The position numbers and the translations under genes are program-made. DNA of 63,723 bases from positions 232,992 through 296,714 of the forward strand of contig NMRA01000059.1 of assembly GCA_002633005.1 (NCBI GenBank), written 5' to 3'. Below the pieces are notes generated by a model. That model searched no databases and had not been told where the DNA came from. It saw only the letters and a program-made list of their open reading frames with translations. The stretch is from Phoronis australis (lineage: Eukaryota; Animalia; Phoronida). Shown here in pieces: positions 6,801 through 30,533 of this stretch (position 1 is its first letter; each line of letters begins with the position of its first letter).

Positions 6801-6966
6801 GAGGTTAACAATAACATGATGAGTAGAAACGATGGAACTATGTTATGCCTGTAAAATATGGACTTTGACAGTAGCCAGCATGTGAAAACAGTAACATGGA
6901 TAATTACGATAATAACAGAAATGGTCTCGTAATACTAAATCAATAACGGTGATCATATTACAAACA

Positions 6967-7012
<46 letters not shown>

Positions 7013-10000: not shown

Positions 10001-13000
10001 TTGTTCAGTTTTAAACTCATCCACAAATTTCATTGCTTGAAGGTTGTAAACTGCTGACTACTTACGGGGGTAAGTTTTTATTGTGTTCCCACAGACTAGA
10101 GCGGTTGACATTAAACCAAGGAAAGACATTAGCCATTTGCTGCAAAATACAAAAACATGAATAATGAACAAAAACTTCAAATAATAATGAGAGATCGTCT
10201 GAATCATTTAGGGTCATACTACTACAGTACACTGCAACAATAATCAGACAAAAAACACTCCCCTTCAAAACCGGTAATGACCAGTCATGACTGGTAATGA
10301 CCAGTCATGACTGGGCATTCTATATGTTGTGATGGTGAATTACACTTGTGCCCAGCCATTCTGACAGGGAATCCCAGGTCATTTTGTCTGATTATTTTAA
10401 GTGGGTACAGCACATATTACTCCATCATCTGCCAAAGCATGGTTTCGTGAGGAATACAACATAAGAAATTTTACAGTAAAAACTCCTATAAGGTTGGCTT
10501 TGTATGCTTACTAATTCTTGTCGAAATATTTTACAAAGACTGATGAAAAAAGGAAAATTGTTCTATTGCCCAAATAATAACTAAGGTGTGTATTCATGAT
10601 CATACTATTCCAGACATTTTATTTTGTAAACAGTCTACAAATGCCATATTCTCGTCTCTTTGTAGTTTTTGTTTTGCCCTTCAACCAGAAAAACCAATTT
10701 TGGTTTATCACACATTTTGGTGCCTTGGCCCAGATCAACTCAGACAAGTTGCCCTAAAAACAATTAATGGCAACGCATTTAGTAGCACTGAACGTATTGT
10801 TGAGATACTGTTTCATTGTTATCAGTATCAATAGGATTACATCAACAATACTGATGTGTGCACCGTCCTAGTTATAATTTATGAGTACACAGTCCAAGTT
10901 ATAACTGGTGTGTACACAAGCCTAGTTATAAATGATGTGTACACAGTCCTATTAATGACTGATGTGTACACATTCCTAGTTATAAGTGATCTGTACACAG
11001 TCCTCGTTACAAGTGATGTGTACACAGTCCTAGTTATAACTGTGTACACAGTCCTATTTATAACTGATGCATACAGTCCTAGTTATAACTGATGTGTCAC
11101 AGTCCTAATTATAACTGATGAGTACAGTCCTCGTTATAACTGATGTGTACACAGTCCTAGTTATAACTGATGTGTACGCAGTCCTAGTTATAACTTATCC
11201 ACAGTGAAAAAGAACATAAACTCACTGACTTGAATCAAACTCATTAGGGTAAATCACAAACCTTAATGAACATTGACCGAACAGAGCTGGTGTTCTTTCG
11301 CAGGTTGCCGGGCAGTGATTCATTTTTCAATGCCTTCTGAATAATTCGCACCAAGTCATCATTGAATTGTTCCTGTGGAAATAAAAAGACCAACTACGAT
11401 TGACAACCACCAATTAAAGCGACCACATACATTGTAATTTAAGACACATTTTAGTTAGAAATTATCGTTGACAACCTGACAACTAAGTAACAAAAAATGG
11501 ATTAGGTCATTTACTCTCATAACAAATTCTCATAACATTCATTAACATTATGAGCATTCCTTAACATTATGAGCTTTCATTAACATGACGAGCTTTCATT
11601 AACATGACGAGAATTCACTAACATGAGATTTCATTAACATGATGAGCTTTCATTAACATGATGAGCATTCATTAACATTATGAGCATTCACTAACACGAT
11701 GAGCTTTCATTAACATGATGAGCATTCATTAAGAAACATGATGAGCTTTGATTTCAATTACTAACAACAACATGAAAACCATCAGCGACTCAAGAAAATG
11801 TTTCTGAGTTTATTGACGTTGGCCAACACTAAAAATGCAATTTTGGACGCATGTATGCATGCTCTGGTTTGGAAATTGGCCAAACCTAAAAATATGAGTT
11901 GGAAAACAGCACATGGATGTATTTTCTGGTATGGAGATGGGCCAGGCGTAAAATATGAATTGGAAAACAGTGCATGTACACATTTGCTGCGACTTGAGTC
12001 AGTAACAAAAGTAGAATCCTGTCACAGTAATGAATATTATGAGACTCATTACATAACAGTAAAAGGCCTAATTTAATATCGGTTTTACATCCAGATAAAT
12101 AGGGTGAAATGGAGCTTTAACAGTGGCAAACTACTGGTTTACATCACAACACCTACTGTGTAATTCAACATGTTTGAGTTGGCAAGAAGTCAACTTTATT
12201 TCAGTCAACTACGAATTGGTCAATTTTCAATAACATAAATCATCACAGCAAAAACTATTGTGGAAAAGATCACATAGGCACAGTCGATCATACAGGCACC
12301 GTCAAAAGCACAAGAAGTAGTAAAACTAATTTACTCTTTAATGCTAGAACAAATTTGTTGACTTCTGAGTTCTCTAGTCAATTAGTTGGTTACCTCATGT
12401 TAAATAAAAGAACTTAAAACAAACATATTTCACATCAACCTACTTCCTCTATAGTGTTTGCTTCACTTACACTTTTACACTGTGAACTGCTGCAAGAAGT
12501 CAACATGACTAAGAGAGCTAGACTAAAAATAAGCAATGACTAACAACAAGCAATGACTATCAAACAGATCAAATAGAGCAGAATTGTTGACATCAAGACC
12601 TAGTTTGGCTCAAGAAGGAAATATATTCACTGTACCCCTTATGGAGCATGATGGCAGGGCTTTAGTCATGTCTGTGAAACAGAATGAGGTGATACGCTTA
12701 AGCAGAGTGGACACGCATGAACATATGTATTTAAATATTCTGGTGAATGTCAACAAGTGGGAAATTCTGAATCTGTTGCAAGATGCGGGACTAAGCTTCA
12801 AAAATCAGGACAGTTGGCAAATATAATATTGGTTGATAAGACACGTCATTAAATACTTCAACTCACCACTGTTGTGTAGAGACCAAGTAAAGCTTTGTTC
12901 ATCACAGTCTGCAAATCATATGGATTACTGGCTTCCCCACTTCCTTTTTCAGGTGTGGAAGGGAGACACCTGGCGAGCCGTACCTGAGGTAGCGCTACAG

Positions 13001-16000
13001 ATGTAGACAACACCACCTGAGTAGATGTCAATGATGGTGAAGTAGTTTCCATAGAGCCAGAATGTTCAGTGTCATCTGTAGCCTTCATCAGACATGAGTC
13101 TGACTTACCAGGGTTAGAGCCAGAATGTTCAGTGTCATCTCCAGCCTTCATCAGACACGAGTCTGACTTACCAGGGTTAGGCAGCACAGTATCATCAGAG
13201 ACAGCATTCAGAACATTAGTCATCACGAGATTCTGGGAGTCTGAATTATTATCAACCTCACGTAATAATAAACTATTTGTTTCTATTGTTGCACATCTTT
13301 TCTCAATGTCAACCATACCAGTCTTACTATTGCCCAATGAAATCTGACTAGCTTCCATACTGCTATTACTTTGGTTGCCAGTCCTTTCTGATACAGTATT
13401 GTCAGTCACATGATCAGTCATGTGACCGCAACTAGGGTTAGTCTTGGTAGCATTGGAGACTATCACCTCACTCCATTGCACTTGAGTATTGCTCAGCTCT
13501 CTTGAACACGTATTTTGTTTCCATTCACTGTCAACATTGTTCTTGTCCGACCCTGACTTACTGAGTTCCTCCCCCGTGCTACACAGTTCTTCTTTGTCCG
13601 AACAATCAGAGTCGTCATCCTCCTCAATGACCTTAACCGTGGCGCCTGACCTTAGTTTCTTGACCTTGGTCTCCTCCAGTGTAATCTCAGGCATCTCAAA
13701 TACATTCCTGTAGATCATCTCGGGCTCAGATTTTGCAGTTTGCACAGACTTCAACTGAAACATGGTGAGTACATAAAGGATCAAAAGAAAGTAGTCAACA
13801 GATGGCGCAATAATAAAAACAGTGCGTACAAGCATACCTTCTGATTTCAAAAGCTCGCCATGAAACTGACCAAGAACACGGTTAGATAAAAAATTCTGAA
13901 AAATACTGATAAGTATATTTCCATGACTAGAATAATGATTTAGTCTCCAATTAAACTAACGAAGAGAAACATGTGAAAACAATAATAAAGTAATTTGGAT
14001 TACGATTGCAATGAACACTAATTTACTATTTGTCATAATTACAATTATATCCCAATATACGATTTGGTACACTGAAAAGAACATCAAAAATTTAACGCTA
14101 TGTGCGATTCAACAGAGCACAAATACCATGACAGTGAGACATAGGTGTCTCGATAACAGTCTGTGATAGAAAATATTATAAAACCTGAAAGTCTTCACCA
14201 CAACTGTGTCTAGTGAGAAACATTATATTGATACTCACCACAGATGAGAATTTTTCCGTAGTCACCAAATGTTGGGCACATCTGGCCCCTACAAGAGCCT
14301 TCATAACCGCAACACAGCCTTCTTGAACCTGCTTGTCCAACGTGGGGCGCCACAGGTCCATGCCAGTGTCTGGACAACAGTTCTTGCACGTATACTGGAT
14401 GACCTCTTCAGGTAGGTATGACAAGATCTCGTACATCTCATCTGCAAACAGACCAAAATACTTAAGTAACGTATTGGAGACCACAACTTTGTTATTGTTA
14501 CTATGTGACTCAAAGAAGCATTAATGATGATAATTACGCCAAACATATCACATCACAGAAGAGTCTGCCAGCCTAATACATTGAACACACAATTGTAATA
14601 TGTACTGTCACTAAGTGAAGTTTGAACATAAAGACAATGTCTATATTTGTTATCAAAAGTTGGAACACTAAGACAAATTGGAATGGTATAAGTAACATTT
14701 CAATATAAGAACAATTATTAGTGAACATACAGCATTGGTACAGGAGCTGGATTATGATCCAACAGAGGTCACTCTACTAGTTTATGATCCAACAGAGGTC
14801 ACTCTACTAGTTTATGATCCAACAGAGGTCACTCCACTAGTTTATGATCCAACAGAGGTCACTCTACTAGTCTACTAGATAATAAAACTGCTCTCAGACA
14901 GCTTTTGATTTGCGTCAGTTACGCAACTAACATTCTGCTTATTGACAAACACATATAACTGTTCACTCAACACATGTTATGAGAAGGAACTACACATACC
15001 TGACATGTTCTCACACTTGGCATGTACCCTGCTGATACATACCTGACATGTTCTCACACTTGGCATGTAACCTGCTGATACATACCTGACATGTTCTCAC
15101 ACTTGGCATGTACCCACGCCTCACACTTGGCACACTGTACCATCTTACTCTCCCAGTCATCATCCGAGTAGCACTTGCAGCAGATGGGGCAGTAGTTACC
15201 TGTCAAATATACAGCAGAGTCAACTAACATCTACTCACAATGAGGCAGCAGTTACCTGTTCAATATACAACAGATTCGACGAACATCTACTCACAATGAG
15301 GCAGTAGACAAACATACAGCAGAGTTGACTAACATCTACTCACAATGAGGCAGTAGACAAATATACAGCAGAGTTGACTAACATCTACTCACAATGAGGC
15401 AGTAGACAAATATACAGCAGAGTTGACTAACATCTACTCAGAGTTGGCCAACAATGATTAGTGTTATCAAAGGAGCTGCCACTCTCACACATCTCCATGT
15501 ATGCAAGAATAATCCTGCACTGCACCTTTGCAGTATGGACACATAAAAATACAATTTCAGCAGTGCAATATCTGGTAGTCAAAACATTGGTTGCCAACCT
15601 CAAGTTGGCAAATGCAAACTCAACATCATTAACAGGCATTCCTTTGATGCCCTACTGGATCCAGTTCCTTCTTTACAGTAACTGTGTCCAATACTGAAGA
15701 CTCCTAACACTAAAGAAATGGAAATATGTCTTTGACTTATGTTATCCATGTCTTGCACTTGTATTTTTATTTTTTGTCTTGTGTTTGCTTTCATGTTTTT
15801 CTTTTATTTCTCTGTACTTGTGTGATTCTAATAAGCTTATTATCATTATCGTTATCATTGTTGTTATATAGAAGGCAGGTAAGGCACACAATCTCACTAA
15901 CTCACCTTTCTGCATCAACTGTCCACATTCATAACAGAGAGAGAAGTCATACGTCCAGGAGCCTGAGGGGCCAGGTGTGGTGGCTCCACAACTACGACAC

Positions 16001-19000
16001 TTGACACATTTACTACACACCTGAGATTAAATAAAAATGAGCTCTAATCAAAAACAGTATAACTGCTTGTTTTCAACTCCGAAATATTTTTTTCTAATTG
16101 AGTGAGTTATCTTCACAGCAAATTGCAGCTTTCAATATCGACATAATACACTTAGTTTGTGCACAGAATGTATTATTGTATCACTGACACTCTCTAAAAC
16201 AGGATGCATATTTGTTGATCCTTCAAAGAGAAACAATAGGGGCAGATCACTTAGAGACAAAGCAAACAGGATATATAAATATACGTAGCGACAGCTATAC
16301 ACAGACTGTTCAAGCTTCATGTTCAGAAAACAAAATCCTGACTGGAACTAAAAATAAGCTCAGAAAATCACTACAGTCTCACAACTCACAACCATTATTT
16401 GATCCACAATTACAATAATAATGATTATGATGATGATAACAGTAGTGGGGTCATTCTTGAATACTTAGTGCTATTTTGAAATTTTTACAATAAGAAAACA
16501 TGAGGATAGTCCAAGACAGGACTTACCCAAATATTTTTCTTGGTCGGTTTAGTGGGATACAGAGGCCCTAGACACTGTGGGTGATAGTGTTCATGGCAAC
16601 GGTCACACTGCAACAGTTTCTGAAATAAACCAATATATGTTGATGTTGGTCAATCACTGTTAGTTCATTCACTACATTCTAATGACCACCTTCAACACTG
16701 GCAGTTATTAACAAAATAAAATGAAACAAAATCAGACCTGTGTATCGCCAAACTGTTTTGGAGTATTCTGCATACCAGACTTGAAGACTTTAGTGAAGGT
16801 TGGATGATGGTAGTGAATATTCATAGAAGCGACTTCATGATTCACGAATTGTCATGTGACTGAAAATGGCTGACAACACAATGTCCACAGCCACGCCAAC
16901 TTGAGTTATTTTTTAATCAAATTTAAGAAGCAGACATCATTTTTGAATTTTTAATCAAAAAGCAAGCACCCGCCTTCCATTTTAACGCTACACTCATCAT
17001 TTCCATTATGCAATAGTTACAGAAACAAATGGATTAACTAAGTTGATTTGATGTGTATTTTTGAAGTCAATACACACTTGCATACTACTAGTCAATTTCT
17101 CTGCTACTACGCCCGTTATACATATGATACACAGGTCTGCACAATAAAATGAAATGGTGCTGTCTAGAAGACTTACATGTTACATCTGGTACAAAGGTCT
17201 GCACAACAGAATGAAACGGTGCTGTCTAGAAGACTTACATTTTACATATGGTACACAGGTCTGCACAATAAAATGAAATGGTGCTGTCTAGAAGACTTAC
17301 ATGTTACCTATGGTACAAAGGTCTGCACAATAGAATGAAACGGTGCCGTCTAGAAGACTTACATTTTTCCTCAGTCCACACACACTGCAGTAGCGACATT
17401 GTCGACAACACCAATTGGACACATCATCACTCTGCGGTCGCTCAGTCTCCTCCAGGCAAAACTCGTGAAATGGCTCACAACAGATTGAGCAGAACAGAAA
17501 CTATAAGGATAGAATGGCTGTGTGTCAACAATGGATCAACAAATGTAGAGAAATGGCTGCGTTCTCATTAACAGACACAGAGAGTCTTACAACTACACTT
17601 TACACCTACAAAGAATATGAAACAAAAACTGTAAACATGCAAGCTAAACAAGTGATGTGAAAAACTTTTATAACTGAATGTCAAGTCGTCAAAAATGAAA
17701 TCTAATGAACTCCCCAACTAACCATAAAGGTCAAGGACAATTTACAAATGGCAAATACCCTCTAGCAGCTAAGCTTTGATTACAGTCCATCTCCTCAAGT
17801 TTTCAGGTCACCATAGACACTTGTTTACTGTATACAAGGGCAGGAGGACTTACCTGATGTTTACCAGCAGAGCCACACAGGTAACACAGTGTTCTGATAC
17901 ACATGGGTGTTGATGCAATGAGGGCCATACCATGTAACCAGGCAGTGTCTACATTATAGTCATCCTACAGAGCAACATTAATGAATCATAGAGTTACAAA
18001 GTAGACACACAAAGTACAATGACGTGTTAAAACAATGTTTGTTAGTTACCACAATATGTTTATTCCCGCCAACCAAACAGTTTTACTGAAAATGTCAATT
18101 CGCAAAAAATGACGAATCATATACTTGCCTTATGTGACTTGACAACATTAAGACACAACTGTAGAGTTGAACAACAGACAGTATACGTTTACCTTCTTTA
18201 AACTATTTGACCAATTCTTTATCATCTCATCATTATACAAATCACCTTAAAGTTGGCCATGATCTTATGTTCTTTCCTCTTTGTCTCAAGATGTTTATCT
18301 TCCTTCTCTGACTCAAACTGCCTCACTATCAGGTTCTGACTATCCACCTTGTTCTTATCTGCCATCTTCTCTGCCTGTAACGTGTCACTCCCATGTATAT
18401 ATATATATATATATACCATAATACAGATGTGAATTTTATCTCCAGCAAAGGGCTTCAATAATTCATGAGCTACAGAATATGCACAACCAAAAAATCTACA
18501 GAATGGTACATAACCCTTTGTGATAAGATCTATATGACGGTGCAAAACCCATTGTAACAATTAGTGCTATCCAAAGGAAGAAACTAGTCTATTTATTCAC
18601 CAGAATCTGCAATGTGCATACATGTAGCTAAATTGTATCCAATTCCAAGTATAACAGAGACCACACTTTACAGCAAATTGCTCCATCTAACTTTAAACAG
18701 ATGCCAAACTTTAGAGGCTCTGATAGAAGATAGTGACAGTAACACACCAATCAACTGACAGTATACGAAAGAGTGACTATACACAAAGACCATGCAAGGA
18801 ATAATTATCACTCACTAGTCTCTGGTTTTTTCTCTGTAAAAGCAATGTCTTCTTTTTCTTCAGCACATCATCCATGTCCGCTTTCGTTTGACCTTTGCGT
18901 GACACGTTTTCATCCAACTTTACATCAGTATCAACCTCCCGCTGAGCATCAGTAAATCGGAATTCAATGTTTTGTCGAGCCCTCTTTGCTGTCTCATTTA

Positions 19001-22000
19001 CTAAAGGGCTTTTATCTTTGCTTTCTTCAACAACTGGTGTTCGCTTTACTTTCTGTTGCCGTGGAGATTTTTCCCCAGCGTTCTCTTCAGCGTAGTGCGG
19101 ATTTGTACATAGACGCAGACTTTAAAGATCCAAAAGTTACAATGAAAACAAAAAAACTTAACAAACATATCAAAGGTCTAGACAATGTTGAAAGACTTGA
19201 TCAATGCCAACCAGTCAACCAGGTTTGTTGCAAAGAAAAATCTGTGGAAGATTAACAAGTTGACAAAAATGCGACATAGCAGGGATGTAGGCACACATGG
19301 TGCAGCAGAAGTACAGTCATACTTTTAGAGTTGTTTTAGATGTTCAGTGGAAGACTTAACAATTTTATTATTGCATAAAACTACCACAAGAGCTATTTAA
19401 CATTAACTATGGAAACTTTATTTTATAGAAAGTCAATAAACTATTAGAATTATAAATAGAAACCAACAAAGCAAAGTGAAGAAATAAGTAACAACTGTTT
19501 CAAACAACGATTCTATGTCTATTTCTAACACATGTAGCTTGCTAATACAACATTGGAGTTTAATAAATATACAAACTATAGTTGCAGATAATGTAAGCAG
19601 TTGGAAAGATTATACAGAAGATACAAAAAACACAAGAATAATTCTTATGAAATCAGTCCAGAAACTGAGCCAGCCATCACAGTTAGGGTCAAGGTCATGG
19701 TCAACGTCACGGTCACCATCACCACTAGTCAAACCACAACACTGAGTGGGTGTACATGGTTAGCAGCTCAGTGATAATGTTCTCTTGATTAGGAATTTTT
19801 CTTAAATGCATACTTTGAACAAAGTGTTAACACAAACACACAACAAAGTCGTTAAAGGAGAATGCCACCCGATTTAATTAGTTTTTTTTGCCCTCTTGAT
19901 CAGTCTATATCCACATCGCCTCGCATATGGTCGACCTTACCTTGCCAAGAGGTGTCGCATTAACCTGTGAGGAAGGTGAGAAACGACGCTAGCGACGTCA
20001 GTGGTTCATCTGCAGAGTGAATGCCGCTATGTTGCGGTGCATCGTTCCCGCTTGTCTGAACTATGCAGCTGCGAGAAAAGCGGGTATATCGTTTGTTTCG
20101 ACTTCCTTGAGAGACCGAAATGCTTAGGAAGTGGCTCGTGGTAGTGAAGAATGAAAAGTATGCTATAAATAGCAAATATGAGGCCGTGAAACATCTCCGT
20201 GTCTGTGGCCTGCAGTTGTCGACAGTGCCTGATGAATGCCGGCTTACTATCCAATCCATACGTTCCGTTGTCTGAGCTTGTTCACGGCGCCTCTCTAGTA
20301 TTTCTTCATCACTGTATTCCTGTTCGAATTGATAGCCCGTGAAACTTAACGATCCACCCGCTAAGTCTCCGTAGGGATTGACTGATGAGTTCTCATCTAA
20401 GTCAGGATTGCGAGTTGCCATGTTGATGTTTATTACTTAGCGTTCTGTTTCAAAATTATTATTCTCATCCTAACCAATACTTATATAAAACTGAAACAAA
20501 GTCTGCCTCATTAGATGCAATTTGTAATGCCTTTGGAGTGTTCGTGAAAGCAAAGACTTGAGAAGCCACCAATGAATAAATCACTGCGTTAACGGCTTTA
20601 GGTGCAATAAAACTAATTGACGGGACACCGAGGCCGTGTGAGCTCATGCTAATTTAGTGTTTGCTGGCAGAAACTGTTGTGAAACAACTCAGTCGATTTC
20701 CACCCCACGGCCTGGTGTTAGGGAAATCTTTATTCACATTTACATTACTCAAATAATGATTGTCAATGTACAACTTCGGCCCTAAAGCAGAACCTAAATT
20801 CGTGGCTCCCGACAAGAAAGTAGATTTGCAGTTTCGTGGGTAATTCACCAACATAATCACGTGCGCATTACTTTGGCTCACTAGTATAGTATTTTCTTGA
20901 CTGGAAGTTTAGTTTCCAACTATGGCTGGTTTATGTTCGTGATGTCTGATCAGTTTCCGAGCCACTGAGCAGGATAGCGAGACAATCCGGCCGGCCGTGA
21001 CGGGCCTGATCGGGCTCCGAGCCACTGGCCAGGATAACAAGCGTTTTGTGTGTTTCGAACTCAAAAACAACACAGATCTGGGTTATCCTGTCCATATCTC
21101 ACGAAAAATATTTCGAATTTGTCTCCGAACAGACCCCAAACTCCTGCTACGGACCTTATTGGTCTGCGGAACTTTGTAGGCTATGGTGTGTCCAAATACC
21201 AATAAATCCGTAACAGCGAAATATAACAACATGTTTTTATAAGAACGCGGTGTACTTTTAAGGGTTTTACATCGAAGTTTGATGATTTATTGGTGTTAAA
21301 CGATGAATTCAAGCGATAAGCTGACACCAGTTACCCGTGTTGTGAACTGCTGAACAGATTGCGTGTGAAACCAATTACGTCATTGGATAATTTCAACACC
21401 TCCGTCTGCCGTCAGGTGTCAGGTAACGCAACCGTACGTGCCGTTATGGAGCAGAACTACTTGATCTAAATTGATAAAAATTAGGTTGTTTTTTGGGTGG
21501 CATGCTCCTTTAAAACAATAGGTATGTCAGGCACTGTAATTAGGACAAATCCAGGTCACCAGTCCAATTAGCCCGACATGCTCTGTGATGTAATTGTACC
21601 AAATTAACAATGACAAGTAATCAGACTAAAATACTGTGTAATGTATTATAAACAAAGATTGGTTTTAAAAATGACACCATACGCCAAATGTAACAGTTAC
21701 TGTTGCAATAAAACAAACTTGTATGCCAGTAATAAGTCAAATATTTTGACTTCATGAGTTTCAATTGAAAACAACAAGTGGTTAAATAAAAAAAGCTCAT
21801 TTAGAATTTCTGAAATCCACAATATTGAGGTATGGTGAATTTTTTGAAACACTACATAACTAATAAGATTCGTCAGTTTAACAGTTCTCAGTAAGTTAAA
21901 GGCAGGAAAGTCTTGTGTGTAGGCAGGAGGCTCTGTGGATACTCATAAATGATTGGCTCCACGATTGGATATGTGACAAATGGGAGGCTTTGTGATTGGA

Positions 22001-25000
22001 TATGTGACAAATGGGAGGCTTTGTGATTGGATATGTGACAAATGGGAGGCTTTGTGATTGGGTGATTGGCACGTGGGTGTCTCTCTTGATTGCATCACTC
22101 AGATAAAGAGGGTTCCATGACAAGAAAACAGGCAAGTGGGTGACAGTGACTAAACGACGACAGATTGAGTCACTATTCAACATGTTCAGAAATATGCACT
22201 AAAACTATAGCACACACACACAAACACACACACACACCTGTGAAAGCGAGTTATGACCAAAACCAAGCATCAAAAGAACCAAGACAAAAAGCTACAACCT
22301 AAGCTATCCAAACTCCAACTTACTTGCACGACTGTTTTAACACACCCCGTCCGCCAAATTTTGGCATATCTCTGAAAAATTCAGCACGATATTTTAGCAT
22401 GACATTCAACCTCAACTTACACGCAGGCTTGTTTCATGGTTCCTGGTCCGCCAAACTTTGGTTTATCTCTGAAATGATTAGCACAGTCAAGAAGCAGAGC
22501 CTGCACTAGGTTCACTGACATTGCGTTAAAAGATCATATTCAAAAATAGACAAGTAAAACTGCAGAGAACAACTGGTATGGGCACTAAAGGGAAGTATAA
22601 CGACGGACTTGAGAGAGGTAAACAATTGAAATAAAAACTCAATAATCATAGTAACGATATGCTACTTTCATTTGAAGGAATATGCCAGAGTGCCATTGAT
22701 TCCATTCAATCTCATCACTTGTTTACTTACAGACAATTTCTGCAGGTGCCACAATCTGGTGTGTTACATCCTTTACACTGGTTACAACGCATTCGTCGCT
22801 TGCGTCTGCCACTTGGTAACCTGGGTGCATTTTCATCAGCAGACAGCCCGACCTTGACCTTGACATCTTGACCCACCTGTTCACTGATAGGCACCTCGTC
22901 CATGTTGTCTTCTGTAACACAGTATGCTCAACAAAATACAGCGACCTTCACAAACGTGCGCATTGCTTGAAAGCAGTGCACAGCACAACTACGAAACATG
23001 TGCCCATTTAGATCTATGAGTCTCAATATATAAAGATGTGCTTGGATCATTTAGATCTATGAGTCTATATATATGTAAAGATGTGCCTAGATCATTAACT
23101 AGACACGTGTCTATATGTGAAACACTTCAGTAAAACCAGGGAACCAACTCATAAACTATTTTGCAAGTGCAACTTGACTTTTCCTTTAACAATGCTACAT
23201 GTTGACAATACTCAGTAGGACATACTATTAACATTAGCAAGACAAAGTCTTGATATTAGGCTCAAGACTGCAATACAAATATAAACATGTGGGCGCATAA
23301 AAATAAGACTGCATTGATGGCTCCACATTTCATGAATTTCAAAATTGACCAAAGAAATCCAAAAACAAGGAGGCAAGCGTAAAAAAGCCAAAGGTGGAGT
23401 GAAAGAGGATTGCTCACCCTTTTCCCTGGCATCCTTTTCTATAATTTTATGCTTGTACGTGTCTGGTAGTGCACTTAGATGGAACTCAGGTTTAGAATCA
23501 AACACAGCTGGTGACCCCAGAGCTATGGCTTTCTTACGACACACATGTTTGATCCGTGGTCCTCGACCTAAAGGAAAATGGAGAATAGACAAGTGGTAAC
23601 ACTAAAATATAGAATGAATATAACAAAGATGATGGGTCACAAAACAACATTATCTAGAAAGCAAGACGGCTTCAGCACAATTTCCTAGTCCGCATTGTTT
23701 TACACATGACTTTGGGACATTAATTACAAATCTATGCTTAGTCAAAATTGTTGGTGCGTTGAATTTCAATTCAAAATGAGGTTAAATCGAATAAATCAAA
23801 TAAGTCTAATGAAAAACTCTGAACTAACTTAACATTATATATTAATACAAACTATAGCAAACAGAAAACAGACAAAGTAATTTTGAATTCCATAATGTCC
23901 AATAATATTAATACGCGTTGAATACATTGTTTCCATATTGAACTCTCAGGACTATTTTTAACAGCGCCCTCTGCACTCAGACATGGAAAGTACAAAGAGT
24001 AGGTCAATGTCGATTCAACGTCGCTAACGGGCTTGATCATAAAACTTTCCAACAATAGCGTAAAGTTCCAAAATGGCAACACTATAAATAACACTAAACA
24101 TGCAATCAGGTACCAAACATAACATCTGGTAAAAAACTGTTACTTTTAACACTTCTGTCTCAGTTTTATTTGTTACAATATATCGTCTGCAACTCAGGTG
24201 CCAATCCCTCGGTAACTAAAATGTTGAATATAGATGGTAATTACTTTCAAAAATGTAAGAAGTTCAGTGCGCAGTTACTGTTGTTGTCATCTTTGTTATC
24301 TCTTTTCAAGTCATAAATCATTACATTTAATACTGTTTTTTTACTAAAGTAAACTTATAGCATCACGCGCAAGTACATACACTACAGGTTCTGATACGCC
24401 ACATAAAGTCTGGGTGAAGTATTTCAAAAATGTACCAAATAATCAAAGAAACTAAGAGCTTGAAGTATTGAAGTATAAAGGATGAATGCCTTCGTTCTCA
24501 GTCGATAAGTAGAATAAGGTCGAGTGGGATCATGATATTATTTCATTTAGGCCACTCACAGTATGTTTTGTGTACTTCTAATGAAATGACAAGTATTGTT
24601 AATTCAATACCTGAGGAGGCAGATGCCACACTACTGGCNNNNNNNNNNNNNNNNNNNNNNNNNNNNNNNNNNNNNNNNNNNNNNNNNNNNNNNNNNNNNN
24701 NNNNNNNNNNNNNNNNNNNNNNNNNNNNNNNNNNNNNNNNNNNNNNNNNNNNNNNNNNNNNNNNNNNNNNNNNNNNNNNNNNNNNNNNNNNNNNNNNNNN
24801 NNNNNNNNNNNNNNNNNNNNNNNNNNNNNNNNNNNNNNNNNNNNNNNNNNNNNNNNNNNNNNNNNNNNNNNNNNNNNNNCCATAGGTGGACAAGTACTTG
24901 CGGTAAAACTTGCGACAACTGTCACAACTGGGAACACCATAATAGAGGCCATTACTTGACATACACAGCCGAAGGTGACCGCACACTGCACATCCCACCC

Positions 25001-28000
25001 CTGAAAATACGACAGCCACTAAAGTAATTCACAAAGAGTCTTCCCTAGCCCAGGAAGTTGCAAGGTAAGAACAGGAAATGGCCGTCAACAAAAAAATTAT
25101 ATTTGCAAATATCTGTCGTTTAAAGAATGTTCACCATTTATTTTTGCATTACTCGAGACATAAACTAGGTAGACCCGTGTCTAATTATAAAAAATCCTCC
25201 ACATAACCTTACAGATCAACAAGCACCAAATGATCCTACAGTTCCCCCTGAGGGCCGTAACTGGAACTGACACAGAGGTGCTCTACTTTGCAGTGGACAG
25301 GACAGGGCAAAATGACATGCATTTCAAAGTCAAACTATGAATAGATCTTACTTTATGTGTTTGAACACAGTGGATTTGCTCCTCATCAGTTACAAGACAA
25401 CCAAGAGTCAGTCATGTCACCTGACCACAAACTATAGTTTTGTAAACATCATAAATTCCGTGTTATGTTGCGTTGGCATAAGAATGACATTCAAGCAGAA
25501 TTGTGATCCAGGATAGTCAACAATACAAACTAGACAATAGCTAGTAAAACTGCAACAGCACAGTGCCCATGTGTCAATTACATCCAACAGCACTGTGCCC
25601 ATGTGTCATTTACATCCAACAGCACTGTGCCCATGTGTCATTTATTTACATCCAACAGCACTGTGCCTATGTGTCATTTAGATCCTGTTACAGCTGTACA
25701 TGCACAGACAATGTCACGTTTTCAACACAGGTTGATGACAAGTGAAAGCACTGGATCACAGTCCAATATTTGAAAAGCGCGAGTTTTTCTGCCCTTCTTC
25801 AAGATGATTGAAATACAGGTATGTGCACTTTTTATTCATTGGCTCTAAAAAACATTCTGAGCAAAGTGAACCTAATGTACAAGTAGACATAAGTAACTTA
25901 GTTGTTAGAATTGTAAGAGGAAAATTAGGGTGTGAAAACATGATGAAAAGTTTGAACCATCAGATTCAACGTCAGTTATACTGGTGAAGTACTTATTGAT
26001 TATAAGTTAATATTTTTCAGGAAACGATGCAGTGGAACCACGTCATGTGGCTCCCTCTATTGCACATCATTCAGTGTTCTCCAAGACCGCTTTCAATGTG
26101 TCGCAGCGTCCTGTTTGGCCGAAGGCACATCCTGTTTAAATGCCCCGCGTCCTGTTTAAAAATGCCGCGACCGATTTAAAAATTAGACCAGTTTGGAAAA
26201 ATGGCGTCGGCATTGTTAATAAGGTCTTCATTGGCTCAAACAATGCTTGACAGCAACTGCCCATAGCCCATTGAAAATGATAAATAAGAGCTAAGTGGTC
26301 AATTGTCGAAAAAATAATCACGAATCTAGCTCAAGCGGCAGACTGGGCCGCTCGTCTATTTATGGTGCAATGTCGCTTGTAAATAATTGCTCAATCATCT
26401 TTTGGGTGACCCGAATTTTATTTTCGTAGTACATTTTTCAATATTCCGTGGGCCCCACGACACTGGTCTGACTTACCGACGCCAGTCTCAACCTTTGCAT
26501 GGAAACGCTTTTGATGACTCTTATTGGTTGTTGTTTGGCATTTCTCACTTGGATGAATATTATTGGTTACTATTGGTGCATTGAGACAGATTGAGCTCAT
26601 CTTATTGCCTTCTAGGGAGTTTTGTTGGCAGCTTGAGCATTATATCTGTAGCCCATACTCCCTCTGAAAACCTGCTAAGCCAATCGCAACTAACTCACCT
26701 TACGTAGCGGCGTGTGCGACGTTTGCGGTTTCGGGGGAGTAATGCCGAGATTTGAGACAGCTAGTTCAATAATATATGTCTCGCGGTGAGAAACTGTAGC
26801 CAAAATCACGTGCTCTCATTGAAAGCGCACGGTAATATCTTGCGTAATCTCGCAAAGTCTAGTCTGGCTTCAGTTACTGATTAACATGCACATTCTACAT
26901 ACTTAGTAATGTCGTCTGCCGTGTGAAGGCGTAGAAAGACTGCGAAGAATCATTTTAAAAACCGAGAGATGTTTCAGATATTGACAATGACTCACACGCC
27001 GATAAGACAGATCCACATGGTGGCGACACTACCAAATCGCAAATATCCGTGCCATTAACGGTGGACTGAATTTTTTTCAACTGACAACATCCAACATCGG
27101 CATTCTTACAATTCTCTTGAACTTGAGAATAAATAGTTCTCAGCTGGAACAATGAGTTGGTGACAATCCTGAAAATTGTGGGAATGCCGGAGTTGCAAGT
27201 GTATAACAATCCAGTCGATATCTTTCTAGAAATATTGCTTTTCATCAACAGGCCTAACACTCCTGTCCATGTAAATGGAAAACGCACGTTTACTCCACTT
27301 TATTCATGATGCAAGACTCGCATATTGTGCACTTTTTACAAGAATTTTGGTGGTGCACAGGTTTAGTGTTGTACCAACTTCAGAACATCGAATTCAGACA
27401 GACAATGTGGGCCGGAGTATTGAATATAAGAATGCTGTGCAAGACATTAGACTGAGAGAAAACGTAGACTTGGCTGTCAACACATATAAAAATGCGACTG
27501 GCTTTACCAAGACACTTCACTCGGACGGTCTACTTCGTGGGAAAAGTTTAGCTCAATGTTAGACTTTTTGGACTTGGTTGACAGTGACATCACAAGAATT
27601 AAGCAAAATATTTCCGCATACTGTTTCAAACACGTCTGCGTAGACTTGCATTTCAAAGTCATTGACTAAACAAATGTTTTTTGTGATATGTTTGTGAATA
27701 AGTCCACTGCCACCTTTTAAAAATAAAAAGTTGAACAAACATAGTTATTTTTTGCACTACTGTGCATTACTAGCCTACTGAGAGCGTTGACTGTCGCGCG
27801 GTTCTGGCATGTTTGTAGCAGTTTTTACGCGCACGACCTGCTTAGATTTTCAGATGTGGAGAACACAGTGATTAAAATCAAGTAAGATATGATCACAAGC
27901 TTTCAATAGTTTTGATTGAACAGCTACACAACAATCTGAACCATTTTTGGACGTTTGTACAATGAGAACGCTATCAAGATCTAACAATTAACTCTGCTTA

Positions 28001-30533
28001 GTAAGTATGAGAAGTACGTCATCTCACCCTCATGGGACAGATTACTCTTCGCGGCTCCTTTCACTACAGTCTTGTCTGACTGCACCTGTGTTTTTTTCTT
28101 CAGCAGTTGTTGTTTCGCCTTCTGAACAATCTTCAAGTATTTTTTGCTACCACATCGCTTCTCGTCTACTTTCCTTGTTGTTGCTGTTTCCCGGGCAAAC
28201 CGAATCGCTGAATTTTCATCCAAAACCTGTGTGAAAAATAAGCAGTTGCAGTCACAAAACACAGAACTTTAGGTAACACTCACTCGCTCTGAAAAATGAA
28301 CAAAACAATGTTTAGTGAACATGATTATGCTTTGAATAAATCAAAGTAATTTGTACATAAGTCAATGGTTTTGTCCAAATCTATTCTAACTTCACCTCTT
28401 TCCGTTTTCCAGATTTTCGTTTATAAAGTTCTGGAGCACCAGTGGTCAACTTGTTCACCAATTTCACAGAAGGCTTCCTTGACCTTTTGCCCTCAGCAAC
28501 ATGTGGAGAGTCCAGTAATGTAATGGAATTCTGTTCATCATAAACAAATAATTTAGATGACTTCTCAGGTGTTGTGCTGTTTCCAATGGATACATCCAAG
28601 TTGTCTGAGAGTGGCTTCACTCGAGTGAACACAGACCGAGACTTAAACTCTTCCTCAATAAAACGCTTTGATGGAATTATCGTCCTTGATGACCGTGAAC
28701 TTTTTTCGGGAAGAACAAATTTATGAGGGGTCCTTTTGTGTACAATTGTTGGTGATGGACCATCTGGCCCACTCTTATGCTGTGCTTTAGTCTTAGCCAG
28801 TTTGTTGTACTTATCACCAATCTTCTTGCCAGGAAGGACTCCCTTAGCAGATTTATTTTCCAAATATTTTCCAGGCACTTTTTGTAATCTCTGCAACTTT
28901 TTCTTCTCTTTGAGTTTGAGCTGCTTTGCCAACTTAGCCCTTGTATTTTCCTTCAACTGTTTCTTCATTTTCTGCATCTTCTTACGTTTAAGTCTCTTGA
29001 CTTGCTCAGAAGATTCAAAATCTGAATCAGATTCAAGTTGATACAACACTGCCTTGACTGATTTCTTCTTCTTTTTCTTTTTGTGTTTTTTATCTTCTTT
29101 CTTATACTTTGAAATCAAATTACTCAACTTTTCATGCTTTTTAAACACCAACCCTGGCTGTTTGACTTTGTACTTGGCCTTGAATATTTGCTTTTGAGGT
29201 TTAACTCGTGTCTGTGTTGTGGGATCACTAATGTCTATCATGGAACACTTGACAACACCCTTTCTAGCCTTCTGGGCCAGACCTTCTTCAATCAATCTTT
29301 TATAAGACTTTTGCATGCGTTTCCTTTTGCCATCTGGTGTCGGCTGCAGTTGGAGCTTTTCCAATTCAGGATCTTCCTCATCATCAGTTATTTCAACCAT
29401 TTTCTCGGCCATTTTGTACATCATGTTCAGACGTTTTTCACTCTGCCGAATTTCCAAATCAGTGAATCCAACAAACTCATCTTCCTGCAAAATATACAAA
29501 TGATTAATGTGCATGTAATCCTTTTAACACGTTTACAACAATGGGAATTAAAATGTAACTAAAGTCAGTTTTTAATGATATTCCTTGCTGTTCTACCAGT
29601 CATTCCATTAGTCACTCCTGTACTGCAAGCTGCTTACAATCACCCTTTGGATAAAAAGAGAATTACTTTGAGTTATGACCACTTTTGGATATAACATTGG
29701 TCTCAACTCGTTCCTTGAACTCAGATGAGTAATGATATATTGGCTATAGTGACAATTGTGTAGTGAGACCATGCTGTGTTAGTCTTCCTATAGTTATCTG
29801 GCCTGGCTAGTGTTGTATCACCAGCACATAATAATGTTGTAGACGTGCTTCTAGTGAATCATGTCAGCCTCCGTTAGCCACTCACTAATGGGCAATTGAA
29901 TGGTTAGCAAGCTTGCCAATTTTATTGGGGTCTCTGCTCTGGTTCAACGCGTAATCTCGGAAAATACTACAATAGCACAAAACCCGGCCATTACACTCCT
30001 TTCCTTTAGACTGTCTATGGTGCATTCACTGCAGAGACTTTTCTAACAGGGTTGACATATTTTGTTGTAGGTGCAGTGATCTAGGCCCAGTTGCTACGTG
30101 CTCTCACAAGGATGATTGAAATAAACATGCAGAAATGAGAAATTAATTCACCAGACGTAGACGATATTTTTCGTCTTGATTAAAGTGAGCAACGTAAAGT
30201 AACTTTGATCTTAGAATGATGAAAGGGGGATAAACATTGTAGTGAAACATAGTTGAAAATCCATCGAGCACAACTTCAATAATTCATTCATCTCTATCAC
30301 TCAATAAACCATCAACTGGTCAACTGTCTCACTGAAAACGGGCCCAACACCATGGGAGACTTTACCTCATCTGAAGCACCAAATAGTTCATAAAACGTAA
30401 CAAGACCACGATGCACATTAATCAAGATTTCAGTCTTCCCATCTGCCGATTTTAAGCCATCATCGACAACGTATTTGGGGTCAGTTCTGTCAAATCTCGG
30501 ACCAGGTCGGCCAGGAAAACGTAAGCTCGCCAT
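798..30533 (-). CDS. KMT2A: Trithorax/KMT2A(MLL1)-family histone H3K4 methyltransferase, multi-exon, 3'-partial (continues beyond window start)
   Basis: Phase-consistent GT-AG exon chain: 30366-30533, 28396-29484, 28028-28226, 24611-25000, 23418-23567, 22731-22911, [22421-22468 | 22324-22371], 18816-19119, 18246-18374, 17854-17964, 17363-17500, 16527-16619, 15906-16020, 15086-15199, 14239-14441, 12867-13754, 11262-11372, 10066-10139, 9522-9670, 9139-9278, 7465-7602, 6607-6765, 6327-6447, 5960-6038, 5237-5475, 1960-4953, possibly 798-854. Domain order and motifs match MLL1/Trx. Probably co-orthologous to vertebrate KMT2A/KMT2B. Confidence 0.95.
873..1123. repeat. 28-bp minisatellite, ~9 copies
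   Basis: AACCATATCTTACAAAGG(T/A)GATATTG(A/G)T. Confidence 0.9.
1960..4953 (-). CDS. KMT2A: KMT2A/trx giant exon (998 codons, low-complexity Ser/Thr-rich region after FYRN)
   Basis: Lies within the 1037-aa ORF; TTTACAG acceptor, GTAAGA donor, phase 1-1; same position as the giant post-FYRN exon of MLL1. Confidence 0.88.
5237..5475 (-). CDS. KMT2A: KMT2A/trx exon, FYRN C-terminal part
   Basis: CARVYWSTSDFRRRTVYTCRVIEV; the donor at 5236 gives phase 1, matching the next exon. Confidence 0.85.
5960..6038 (-). CDS. KMT2A: KMT2A/trx exon, FYRN
   Basis: GSLTVECLGQLSHQSDFKQHLIPVGF; a duplicate acceptor lies 30 nt upstream (6068). Confidence 0.88.
6327..6447 (-). CDS. KMT2A: KMT2A/trx exon, start of FYRN region
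   Basis: FSVLRRVCINCD...GLYPELINIVV G|GTATGT. Confidence 0.88.
6607..6765 (-). CDS. KMT2A: KMT2A/trx exon, PHD4
   Basis: RCNVCSLTGATVGCCSSYCQANFHFMCSRRDGCYFQDDKNVFCKLH. Confidence 0.95.
6968..7010. repeat. (AAT)n microsatellite
   Basis: Direct reading. Confidence 0.95.
7105..7450. repeat. ~34-bp minisatellite
   Basis: CACTGAGTGAGTGTTCATTCAAAGATCAGAAAGA variants. Confidence 0.9.
7465..7602 (-). CDS. KMT2A: KMT2A/trx exon, ePHD (C2HC pre-PHD)
   Basis: EAGRLLYAGYDTWVHVNCALWSAEVYELADGSLQNVHTAVSRGKQL. Confidence 0.95.
7805..8105. repeat. 59-bp tandem repeat, 5 copies
   Basis: GTGAGCAAGGCGTGAATGTTTGAAGACAGATAATGTCCTGCAACTGATCT...; produces the spurious ORFs at 7753-8108. Confidence 0.92.
8200..8810 (-). 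mobile_element. Degenerate copy of the same HINE-like family
   Basis: GGACGGACAGGGTTGACGGCATAATGCGCCCAC matches the 421-455 motif. Confidence 0.4.
9139..9278 (-). CDS. KMT2A: KMT2A/trx exon, start of extended PHD
   Basis: DNRRCLLCQTVGDADPN|GTAAGT. Confidence 0.9.
9522..9670 (-). CDS. KMT2A: KMT2A/trx exon
   Basis: MLDNAILPPTVDHTYAQW (cf. MLL1 MLPNAVLPPSLDHNYAQW). Confidence 0.92.
10066..10139 (-). CDS. KMT2A: KMT2A/trx exon, end of bromodomain
   Basis: QMANVFPWFNVNRSSLWEHNK. Confidence 0.9.
10850..11195. repeat. ~27-bp minisatellite
   Basis: GTGTACACAGTCCTAGTTATAACTGAT variants. Confidence 0.9.
11262..11372 (-). CDS. KMT2A: KMT2A/trx exon, bromodomain
   Basis: EQFNDDLVRIIQKAL...VRSMFIK. 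Confidence 0.9.
11535..11750. repeat. 19-bp minisatellite
   Basis: CATTAACATGATGAGCTTT variants. Confidence 0.9.
12867..13754 (-). CDS. KMT2A: KMT2A/trx exon, long insertion followed by bromodomain helix
   Basis: 296 open codons, ends PYDLQTVMNKALLGLYTTV|GTGAGT (cf. MLL1 PLDLEGVKRKMDQGNYTSV). Confidence 0.88.
14239..14441 (-). CDS. KMT2A: KMT2A/trx exon, end of PHD3 and start of bromodomain
   Basis: DEMYEILSYLPEEVIQYTCKNC...WRPTL. Confidence 0.93.
14752..14872. repeat. 30-bp tandem repeat, 4 copies
   Basis: TTATGATCCAACAGAGGTCACTCTACTAGT. Confidence 0.92.
14995..15115. repeat. 43-bp tandem repeat spanning the PHD3 exon donor
   Basis: CATACCTGACATGTTCTCACACTTGGCATGTA x3. Confidence 0.9.
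15086..15199 (-). CDS. KMT2A: KMT2A/trx exon, PHD3
   Basis: GNYCPICCKCYSDDDWESKMVQCAKCEAWVHAKCENMS. Confidence 0.94.
15190..15440. repeat. 49-56-bp tandem repeat starting at the PHD3 exon acceptor
   Basis: ...ATATACAGCAGAGTTGACTAACATCTACTCACAATGAGGCAG x~5. Confidence 0.88.
15906..16020 (-). CDS. KMT2A: KMT2A/trx exon, PHD2-PHD3 zinc knuckle
   Basis: VCSKCVKCRSCGATTPG...WTYDFSLCYECGQLMQKG. Confidence 0.94.
16527..16619 (-). CDS. KMT2A: KMT2A/trx exon, PHD2
   Basis: KLLQCDRCHEHYHPQCLGPLYPTKPTKKNIW. Confidence 0.94.
17116..17365. repeat. ~61-bp tandem repeat, 4 copies, abutting an exon donor
   Basis: GGTCTGCACAA...GCTGTCTAGAAGACTTACAT. Confidence 0.88.
17363..17500 (-). CDS. KMT2A: KMT2A/trx exon, PHD1/PHD2
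   Basis: FLFCSICCEPFHEFCLEETERP...NWCCRQCRYCSVCG. Confidence 0.94.
17854..17964 (-). CDS. KMT2A: KMT2A/trx exon, start of PHD1
   Basis: DDYNVDTAW...RTLCYLCGSAGKHQ|GTAAGT. Confidence 0.92.
18246..18374 (-). CDS. KMT2A: KMT2A/trx exon (pre-PHD)
   Basis: TTACAG|AEKMADK...HKIMANFK|GTGAT; resembles MLL1 HRIRVDFK. Confidence 0.85.
18816..19119 (-). CDS. KMT2A: KMT2A/trx exon, end of CXXC and linker
   Basis: AAG|T LRLCTNP supplies the final RxC of CXXC; open frame to QRL|GTGAGT; phase 2 to 0. Confidence 0.82.
19856..21509. mobile_element. Internally deleted Kolobok-like DNA transposon in a KMT2A intron
   Basis: TTAA on both sides (19852-19855, 21510-21513); 15-bp TIR AGGAGAATGCCACCC / GGGTGGCATGCTCCT (14/15); AG...CT termini; decayed THAP on + strand and second ORF start on - strand. 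Confidence 0.8.
20029..20217 (+). pseudogene. Decayed THAP zinc-finger (transposase N-terminus)
   Basis: MLRCIVPACLN...GIS / frameshift / FRLP*ETEMLRKWL...HLRVCGLQ fits the THAP C-x-V-P-x-C...F-x-x-P...W...RVC pattern. Confidence 0.7.
21960..22062. repeat. ~31-bp tandem repeat, ~3 copies
   Basis: GATTGGATATGTGACAAATGGGAGGCTTTGT. Confidence 0.88.
22324..22371 (-). CDS. KMT2A: KMT2A/trx CXXC KFGG-loop exon, variant B (48 nt), paralog of variant A
   Basis: TTTTCAG|A GAT ATG CCA AAA TTT GGC GGA... = DMPKFGGRGVLKQSC(N)|GTAAGT, phase 2-2. Confidence 0.85.
22421..22468 (-). CDS. KMT2A: KMT2A/trx CXXC KFGG-loop exon, variant A (48 nt)
   Basis: TTTCAG|A GAT AAA CCA AAG TTT GGC GGA... = DKPKFGGPGTMKQAC(V)|GTAAGT, phase 2-2. 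Confidence 0.9.
22731..22911 (-). CDS. KMT2A: KMT2A/trx exon, N-terminal half of CXXC zinc finger
   Basis: RRKRRMRCNQCKGCNTPDCGTCRNC(L)|GTAAGT, phase 1 to 2. Confidence 0.93.
23418..23567 (-). CDS. KMT2A: KMT2A/trx exon (SNL2-like motif)
   Basis: GPRIKHVCRKKAIALG...LSALP, conserved MLL1/Trx motif; TTTAG acceptor, GTGAG donor. Confidence 0.93.
24611..25000 (-). CDS. KMT2A: KMT2A/trx exon with nuclear-receptor-like C4 zinc finger, interrupted by assembly gap
   Basis: TTTTCAG|GVGCAVCGHLRLCMSSNGLYYGVPSCDSCRKFY; after the gap ASSVASASS G|GTATTG; phase 1-1 matches both neighbours. The gap could hide an intron. Confidence 0.75.
24639..24879. other. Assembly gap (241 N)
   Basis: Run of N. Confidence 1.
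25555..25680. repeat. ~29-bp tandem repeat
   Basis: CAACAGCACTGTGCCCATGTGTCATTTACATC. Confidence 0.85.
26072..27868. mobile_element. Probable old non-autonomous TIR element (hAT-like)
   Basis: CAGTGTTCTCCA ... TGGAGAACACAG (11/12 inverted match); short subterminal repeats CCTGTTTAAA; faint TTF-zinc-finger-like fragments near 27280-27440; no TSD recognised. Confidence 0.4.
28028..28226 (-). CDS. KMT2A: KMT2A/trx exon 3
   Basis: ACAG|VLDENSAIRFARE...HE G|GTGAGA, phase 0 to 1. Confidence 0.8.
28396..29484 (-). CDS. KMT2A: KMT2A/trx exon 2 (LEDGF-binding FxGF motif, Lys-rich region, SNL1-like motif)
   Basis: TTGCAG|EDEFVGF... KFVLPEKSSRSSRTIIPSKRFIEEE; open 363 codons; donor GTGAAG. Confidence 0.9.
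30366..30533 (-). CDS. KMT2A: KMT2A/trx exon 1 (start codon, menin-binding motif)
   Basis: MASLRFPGRPG matches the MLL1 menin-binding motif RFPARPG; ends FGASDE|GTAAA, phase 0. Confidence 0.92.

Follow-up and report, generated by a model that had tools for sequence, protein, structure and literature searches.

A tandem pair of 48-nt exons predicted to encode alternative DNA-contacting halves of the CXXC finger in a trithorax/KMT2A-B gene of Phoronis australis

The window, by which we mean the whole 63,723-nt stretch of Phoronis australis contig NMRA01000059.1 that was analyzed, carries on its minus strand a gene body (1880..30533) that by sequence comparison is a trx/KMT2A-B orthologue. We searched it by tblastn with 22 trx, KMT2A and KMT2B proteins, each of which matched in 11-19 pieces. 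The matches to the trx proteins of Haliotis, Liolophura and Lineus are colinear with the gene, and three alignments that we viewed in full ran colinearly from 30533 to 5300 or beyond. Summed scores ranged from 830 to 1101 for the molluscs and the nemertean and from 664 to 862 for the deuterostomes and the chelicerate, a difference that makes a lophotrochozoan origin of the gene probable. The gene is laid out as an N-terminus, a zinc-finger-like exon, an exon encoding GPRIKHVC, the CXXC finger, PHD1-3, an extended PHD and FYRN, the last being the only domain that Pfam recognized on single exons. A preliminary description of this DNA, made from its letters, had called the gene trithorax/MLL, and the colinear tblastn matches through CXXC, PHD1-3, extended PHD and FYRN bear this out. 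The gene exits the window before SET, which lies outside, and its identity as a methyltransferase would follow from orthology.

Head-to-head with trx, a second gene occupies about 31400-54900 on the plus strand; it has an exon with a Pfam CH match (42287-42640) and coiled-coil exons, and it may be DIXDC1-like. A tandem block at 51160-51760 and 52093-52693, 99% identical, with one coding exon duplicated and a single N at 51761, is probably an assembly overlap. A tandem repeat (14970-15130, minus strand) takes in the PHD3 exon's 3' end together with its donor and supplies look-alike donors at 15086 and 15043. A transposon (19852..21513, unstranded) sits inside the intron between exons B and D described below. 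Its terminal inverted repeats measure 19 nt, TTAA stands at either end, and the termini are presumably Kolobok-like. Its five ORFs had no Pfam match, it attracted many diverged reads (90-99%) from other copies in all the RNA runs, and it plays no part in the exon mechanism.

The CXXC finger is encoded across two constant exons and a pair of short ones, all on the minus strand. Upstream, exon U (22731..22911) contributes six Cys, the N-terminal half of the finger, and ends in a phase-2 donor at 22731; downstream, exon D (18816..19119) holds the last zinc-ligand Cys and has a candidate donor at its 3' end, 18816. Between them lie exon A (22421..22468) and exon B (22324..22371), which encode the KFGG...KQxC half of the finger and are separated by an intron of 49 nt (22372..22420). 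Each is preceded by the acceptor TTTCAG and followed by GTAAGTTG. The preliminary description had read these as two tandem 48-nt phase 2-2 exons identical at 32/48 nt, and our coordinates and a pattern scan agree with it, down to the peptides as written there. In that scan, which combined splice sites with the protein motif, only A and B matched in the window and nothing matched in 100 shuffles. Moreover, a repeat search found a 77-nt direct repeat over A and B with 71% identity and a spacing of 97. One mark of homologous mutually exclusive exons is that they stand in tandem, match in length and phase and each leave the frame open, and A and B bear this mark.

The peptides of A and B differ in 5 of 15 codons but retain D, PKFGG, G, KQ and C, and their net charge is equal. 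After KFGG, A reads P-G-T and B reads R-G-V. Comparison of the two exons gave pS 0.71 and pN 0.20, rough values from 15 codons, with synonymous sites near saturation and both frames intact. This pattern fits selection on both copies, as had been proposed from the sequence.

We then considered the possible transcripts. U-A-D and U-B-D are each in frame and each contain eight Cys, KFGG and KQ. Sections of PMC3685328 give eight Cys, KFGG and KQ or RQ as the hallmark of the type-1 ZF-CxxC, and by these marks both predicted forms would be of that type. The transcript with A and B together is also in frame, while retention of the 49-nt intron leads to a stop. Skipping of both exons is in frame and leaves seven Cys. 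The shortest of the other introns that could be placed has 159 nt (6606-6448). The earlier statement that all other introns measure at least 159 nt thus stands for placeable introns; it does not extend to one near 28300, where two possible acceptors give ~107 or ~166 nt, nor to a gap of N at 24639-24879.

To follow the use of the exons we scanned ~18-19% of each of three raw RNA runs (X1, X2 and X3) that carry the same species label and belong to one study; joints were listed from a floor of 3 reads, and mates may count twice. Reads for both exons were found when the junctions were mapped. In X2, three reads with three different starts crossed the joint 22468-22731 (U-A) and covered all 48 nt of A, and three loose ends past A read into the start of exon D. 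The joint 19119-22324 (B-D) was crossed by three X1 reads, again with three starts, and by one X3 read, but by none of X2, bringing the spliced reads across the three runs to seven. The depth of X2 on A and B is fully explained by its three spliced reads and two unspliced ones, which run across B, the 49-nt intron and A and are the sole coverage of that intron. X1 and X3 have zero depth on A, and the contigs of X4 showed no depth on either exon. On exon U the depth stops at both edges, with a loose end behind 22912 in six reads. X1 has two second-mate reads on U together with a first-mate B-D read and none on A; these mates, whose pair identifiers are not shown, are consistent with U-B-D fragments.

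A and B are therefore each spliced into RNA without the other, although the U-B junction (22731-22371) was not seen in the scanned ~18-19% of X1-X3. Neither an A-B nor a U-D joint stood among the joints listed (seven spliced reads, floor of 3 reads, seven further rows of joints masked by transposon reads). At this low depth exclusive use of A or B is probable, and A-B or U-D joins may occur at low frequency. Of the mutual exclusivity proposed at the outset, the single splicing of each exon is upheld, by three U-A-D reads and by four B-D reads from runs with no depth on A. Likewise, the double skip that had been put forward as a CXXC-dead form is possible by frame and by its seven Cys, but its joint is absent among those listed. 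Comparing A in X2 with B in X1 plus X3 gave a Fisher p of 0.029 (0.10 for X2 against X1 alone), which at most hints at a regulated choice, spliced A having come from X2 alone and spliced B from X1 and X3.

The arrangement recurs in other animals. Metagenome contigs, when scanned, yielded 63 loci with a 48-nt phase 2-2 exon, 60 of them with one copy and three with two; pattern scans of genome contigs and of viral contigs gave 0 matches. The two-copy loci represent two organisms, L004 and L043 belonging to one and L053 to the other, and their A-B introns measure 55/56 nt and 70 nt, respectively. Flanking exons, closest to those of Ruditapes and Mya, identify L004 and L043 as trx; L053 comes without a flanking exon and is a putative trx. 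P8 and A14 mark the first copy, and V10 the second, in 3/3 organisms, the window's included. Same-position copies share 24, 23 and 23 of 30 residues across species, against 22, 20 and 21 for crossed copies, so that same-position copies are the more alike in 3/3 comparisons, with small margins of 2-3 residues of 30. Exon B of L004 and exon B of L053 are identical at 42/48 nt. As judged by these comparisons, the pair is probably older than the split of the window's animal from bivalves.

A separate case was found in the hemichordate Ptychodera flava, where RefSeq isoforms X1 and X2 (XP_070548619 and XP_070548620, 2748 aa each) differ in three residues, all in the loop exon, and isoforms X3 and X4 likewise differ in three residues, all within it. 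The Ptychodera loops are closer to each other than to A or B, which likely reflects an independent duplication. A second exon in relatives, which the preliminary description had asked for, is thus present with introns of 55-70 nt in L004/L043 and L053 and as isoforms in Ptychodera. The distribution of the pair across animals is nevertheless patchy: in 19 of 20 protein clusters (among them those of Haliotis, Ostrea, Octopus, Mytilus, Branchiostoma and vertebrates) no species had more than one loop, as counted from annotation, which can miss a second exon. Pinctada has a P-G-T loop where oysters, mussels and scallops have R-G-V, and unionids have P-G-L in contrast to Mya and Ruditapes; a second exon may lie hidden in these bivalves. 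Two observations from the protein collections stand apart. In an unnamed 499-aa protein (P0407), two CXXC fingers of the KFGG type, both complete, follow one another, and the Mytilus models P0020, P0149 and P0152 would yield a trx without the first half of the finger.

The 60 single-exon loci, many of which repeat one sequence, comprise 24 with P-G/AKK, 21 with R-G, 11 with P-G-T and 4 others, and single-exon orthologues carry a loop of either type. The P-G/AKK and R-G classes both occur in trx-type genes, whose upstream exons differ between the classes. Among 35 assemblies with either class, 10 have two loci, and in 10/10 these are one of each class, the metagenome assemblies not being independent of one another. 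The R-G class agrees with B of the window in up to 14/15 residues; the P-G class is loosely A-like, with 10/15 residues shared with A of the window and 12/15 with A of L053. A tree built on 139 columns and 31 rows of flanking blocks, from which 10 loci having one block or none were omitted, gave 100% support to each single-exon class, did not join the P-G and R-G classes, and left the window sequence unplaced. No decayed second copy was detected in the single-exon loci, where the best other match reached at most 28/48. The gene pair fits isoform separation after gene duplication, as set out in parts of Abascal 2015 (PMC4494069), with a P-G-only and an R-G-only trx gene in 10/10 assemblies. Unlike the cases in those parts of that paper, descent from a two-exon ancestor is here unsupported by the tree, and no remnant exon accompanies it. 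As a side observation, KQ has become KK or RK, with Lys in place of the Gln that reads CpG, in the first exon of L053, in the 24 P-G loci, in Pinctada P0017 and in Littorina P0016; by sequence, this change could relax or abolish CpG reading.

Introns of 50-60 nt are spliced in many invertebrates, and the intron between A and B has 49. Within it, measured from the donor of A, candidate branch points, taken as consensus matches with no mapped lariats, lie at 15, 27 and 40 nt, and candidates less than 50 nt from the donor are also present in L004, L043 and L053. A donor-to-branch-point distance below 50 bp is the criterion of potential steric interference in passages of PMC5740500, a limit that derives from human data. 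Frameshift surveillance cannot account for the exclusion, because A and B together are in frame. No convincing case of docking-selector pairing was found around the exons of the window, L043 or L053. Given a branch point closer than 50 nt, a joint A+B frame that stays open and the lack of conserved pairing, steric exclusion is the best explanation that we can infer. The preliminary description had proposed the same; the whole intron, at 49 nt, does fall below the 50-nt limit, and intron length is the only feature from which steric exclusion of A+B is drawn. Other signals differ between species. L004, as well as L043, has an identical 13-nt element upstream of both acceptors, which 0/500 shuffles reached in L004 and which could be the trace of a gene conversion or a regulatory site that serves both exons. 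An 8-nt element is common to both acceptors of L053 (11/500 shuffles). The elements of L004 and L053 are not common between species and have no counterpart in the window (100/500 shuffles). The 13-nt element combines a branch-point-like sequence with a UG repeat.

The differences between the two exons fall at informative positions. With residues numbered by alignment to KMT2A, counted from K1186/Q1187 as these appear in passages of PMC9249231, A and B have K/M at K1176, P/R at R1182, T/V at I1184, M/L at K1185 and A/S at C1188. The best PDB match of A was the CXXC finger of human KMT2B (4pzi; P-N-T) with an E value of 2.4e-4, against 0.13-0.17 for KMT2A. For B the matches were to KMT2A (R-N-I; E 0.01-0.02), KDM2A and FBXL19, with no KMT2B among 9; both queries carried 4-5 intron-derived residues. 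Judged by named proteins and these matches, A resembles human KMT2B, and B KMT2A, at the loop positions. According to sections of PMC3685328, in the type-1 CXXC finger KFGG provides rigidity, KQ reads the CpG, and the backbone of the residue that precedes KQ makes a further DNA contact; the K1176A change reportedly compromises DNA binding of MLL1 (PMC9249231). Since KQ is kept in both A and B, core specificity is unlikely to have changed, and both loops should still bind unmethylated CpG. Their differences would lie in backbone and linker contacts, not in core base reading, and we infer tuned affinity or context rather than a new specificity. Of the two different DNA-recognition loops described at first, five differing residues remain; the identical KQ speaks against distinct core recognition.

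Taken together, we give a probability of roughly 0.6 to the reading that A or B is included singly, likely by way of the short intron, yielding two full-length proteins with a predicted difference in the strength or context of CpG binding. In one trx/KMT2A-B gene, a pair of the tandem-duplication type encodes that half of the CXXC finger which contacts DNA, and the 49-nt intron would be too short for removal, leaving A or B singly. A has Pro-Gly-Thr and, at the K1176 position, a Lys; B has Arg-Gly-Val and a Met at that position, a change that may shift positive charge along the DNA face. It is unlikely, though well worth weighing, that the exons are exclusive and the loops equivalent, the pair persisting since a working finger results from each copy, while double inclusion, which would be harmful, is blocked by the short intron. 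The residues common to A and B and their equal charge would suit such equivalence, as would the many lineages with a single exon and the occurrence of either loop type among them. Near-saturated synonymous sites behind intact frames, residues kept by position across species and the different use of A and B between runs all argue against equivalence, and K1176, important for MLL1 binding in the cited parts of PMC9249231, is among the residues that changed.

The unseen U-B junction also admits that most transcripts reach B from a different first or upstream exon and encode a protein shortened at its N-terminus, with an incomplete finger, and the Mytilus RefSeq models P0020, P0149 and P0152 do fuse a short alternative N-terminus directly to the loop exon. 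We hold this to be quite improbable, as B has the phase and length to complete the finger after U, X1 has reads on U and on B-D with none on A, and the Ptychodera flava isoforms represent an equal-length substitution. Least credible of all is an origin of the pair in misassembly or in confused alleles, or the decay of one of its copies. Near-identical tandem blocks do exist elsewhere in the window (51160-52693, 99%), but individual reads run through B, the intron and A, the two exons are only 67% identical, both are spliced, and the pair recurs in other animals; RNA reads and recurrence in other loci contradict this reading.

Returning to single inclusion of A or B with different binding, a broader and decidedly tentative extension, more doubtful than probable, is that of an old lophotrochozoan switch, re-evolved in hemichordates, which would provide MLL1-like and MLL2-like readers by tissue and whose exons one lineage would have split between paralogues. 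If so, splicing, invertebrate duplication and the vertebrate KMT2A/KMT2B pair would be three routes to one two-state loop, and the placement of H3K4 methylation would depend on a short loop that can be tuned.

The preliminary description knew of no such arrangement in KMT2A/trx, and our literature search, which did not cover subscription papers, found no description of exclusive loop exons in trx/KMT2 either. KMT2, MLL and CXXC are absent from PMC5740500 (text and 10 supplements) and PMC9741552 (text and 1 supplement), and from the main text of PMC7954323 and PMC11701043; the exclusive-exon catalogues among these (PMC5740500, PMC9741552 and PMC7954323) center on human and model species, where a listing is not expected. 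An annelid survey of histone modifiers lists kmt2a/b in the sections cited here and used the longest isoforms (PMC12153100). The Ptychodera flava pair is already in RefSeq in the form of automatic models. What we describe is a known splicing class at a gene location for which we found no description.

The pair is like the exclusive exons with short introns reported in passages of PMC5740500 (57 clusters, 9%) in being tandem, of the same length and phase, and with less than 50 nt from donor to branch point. It is also like exons 16/16b (18/18b) of FOXP1, homologous exclusive exons that alter part of a DNA-binding domain, a switch for which part of PMC8989529, citing Gabut 2011, reports altered DNA-binding specificity. 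Unlike that forkhead transcription factor, the protein affected here is a chromatin enzyme with a CXXC CpG reader, its KQ is unchanged, and the functional difference is predicted. The closest parallel is that between KMT2A (R-N-I) and KMT2B (P-N-T), whose loops are set apart by two positions after KFGG at which A and B differ as well; vertebrates have two genes for what is here one gene with two exons. This likeness is probably convergent, because the loop of shark KMT2B reads R-N-T. In excerpts of a review (PMC8401916), swaps of the CXXC between MLL1 and MLL2 change localization and genomic binding; the cited text, as far as those excerpts go, does not assign the PAF1 and targeting differences of the two proteins to the loop itself. 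MLL1 and MLL2 target genes differently while the CXXC of both binds unmethylated CpG, and the natural A/B pair, with proteins otherwise identical and five loop residues different, makes the contribution of the loop testable. It would also represent a chromatin reader diversified by exon swapping in invertebrates, of a kind that single-isoform annotations overlook.
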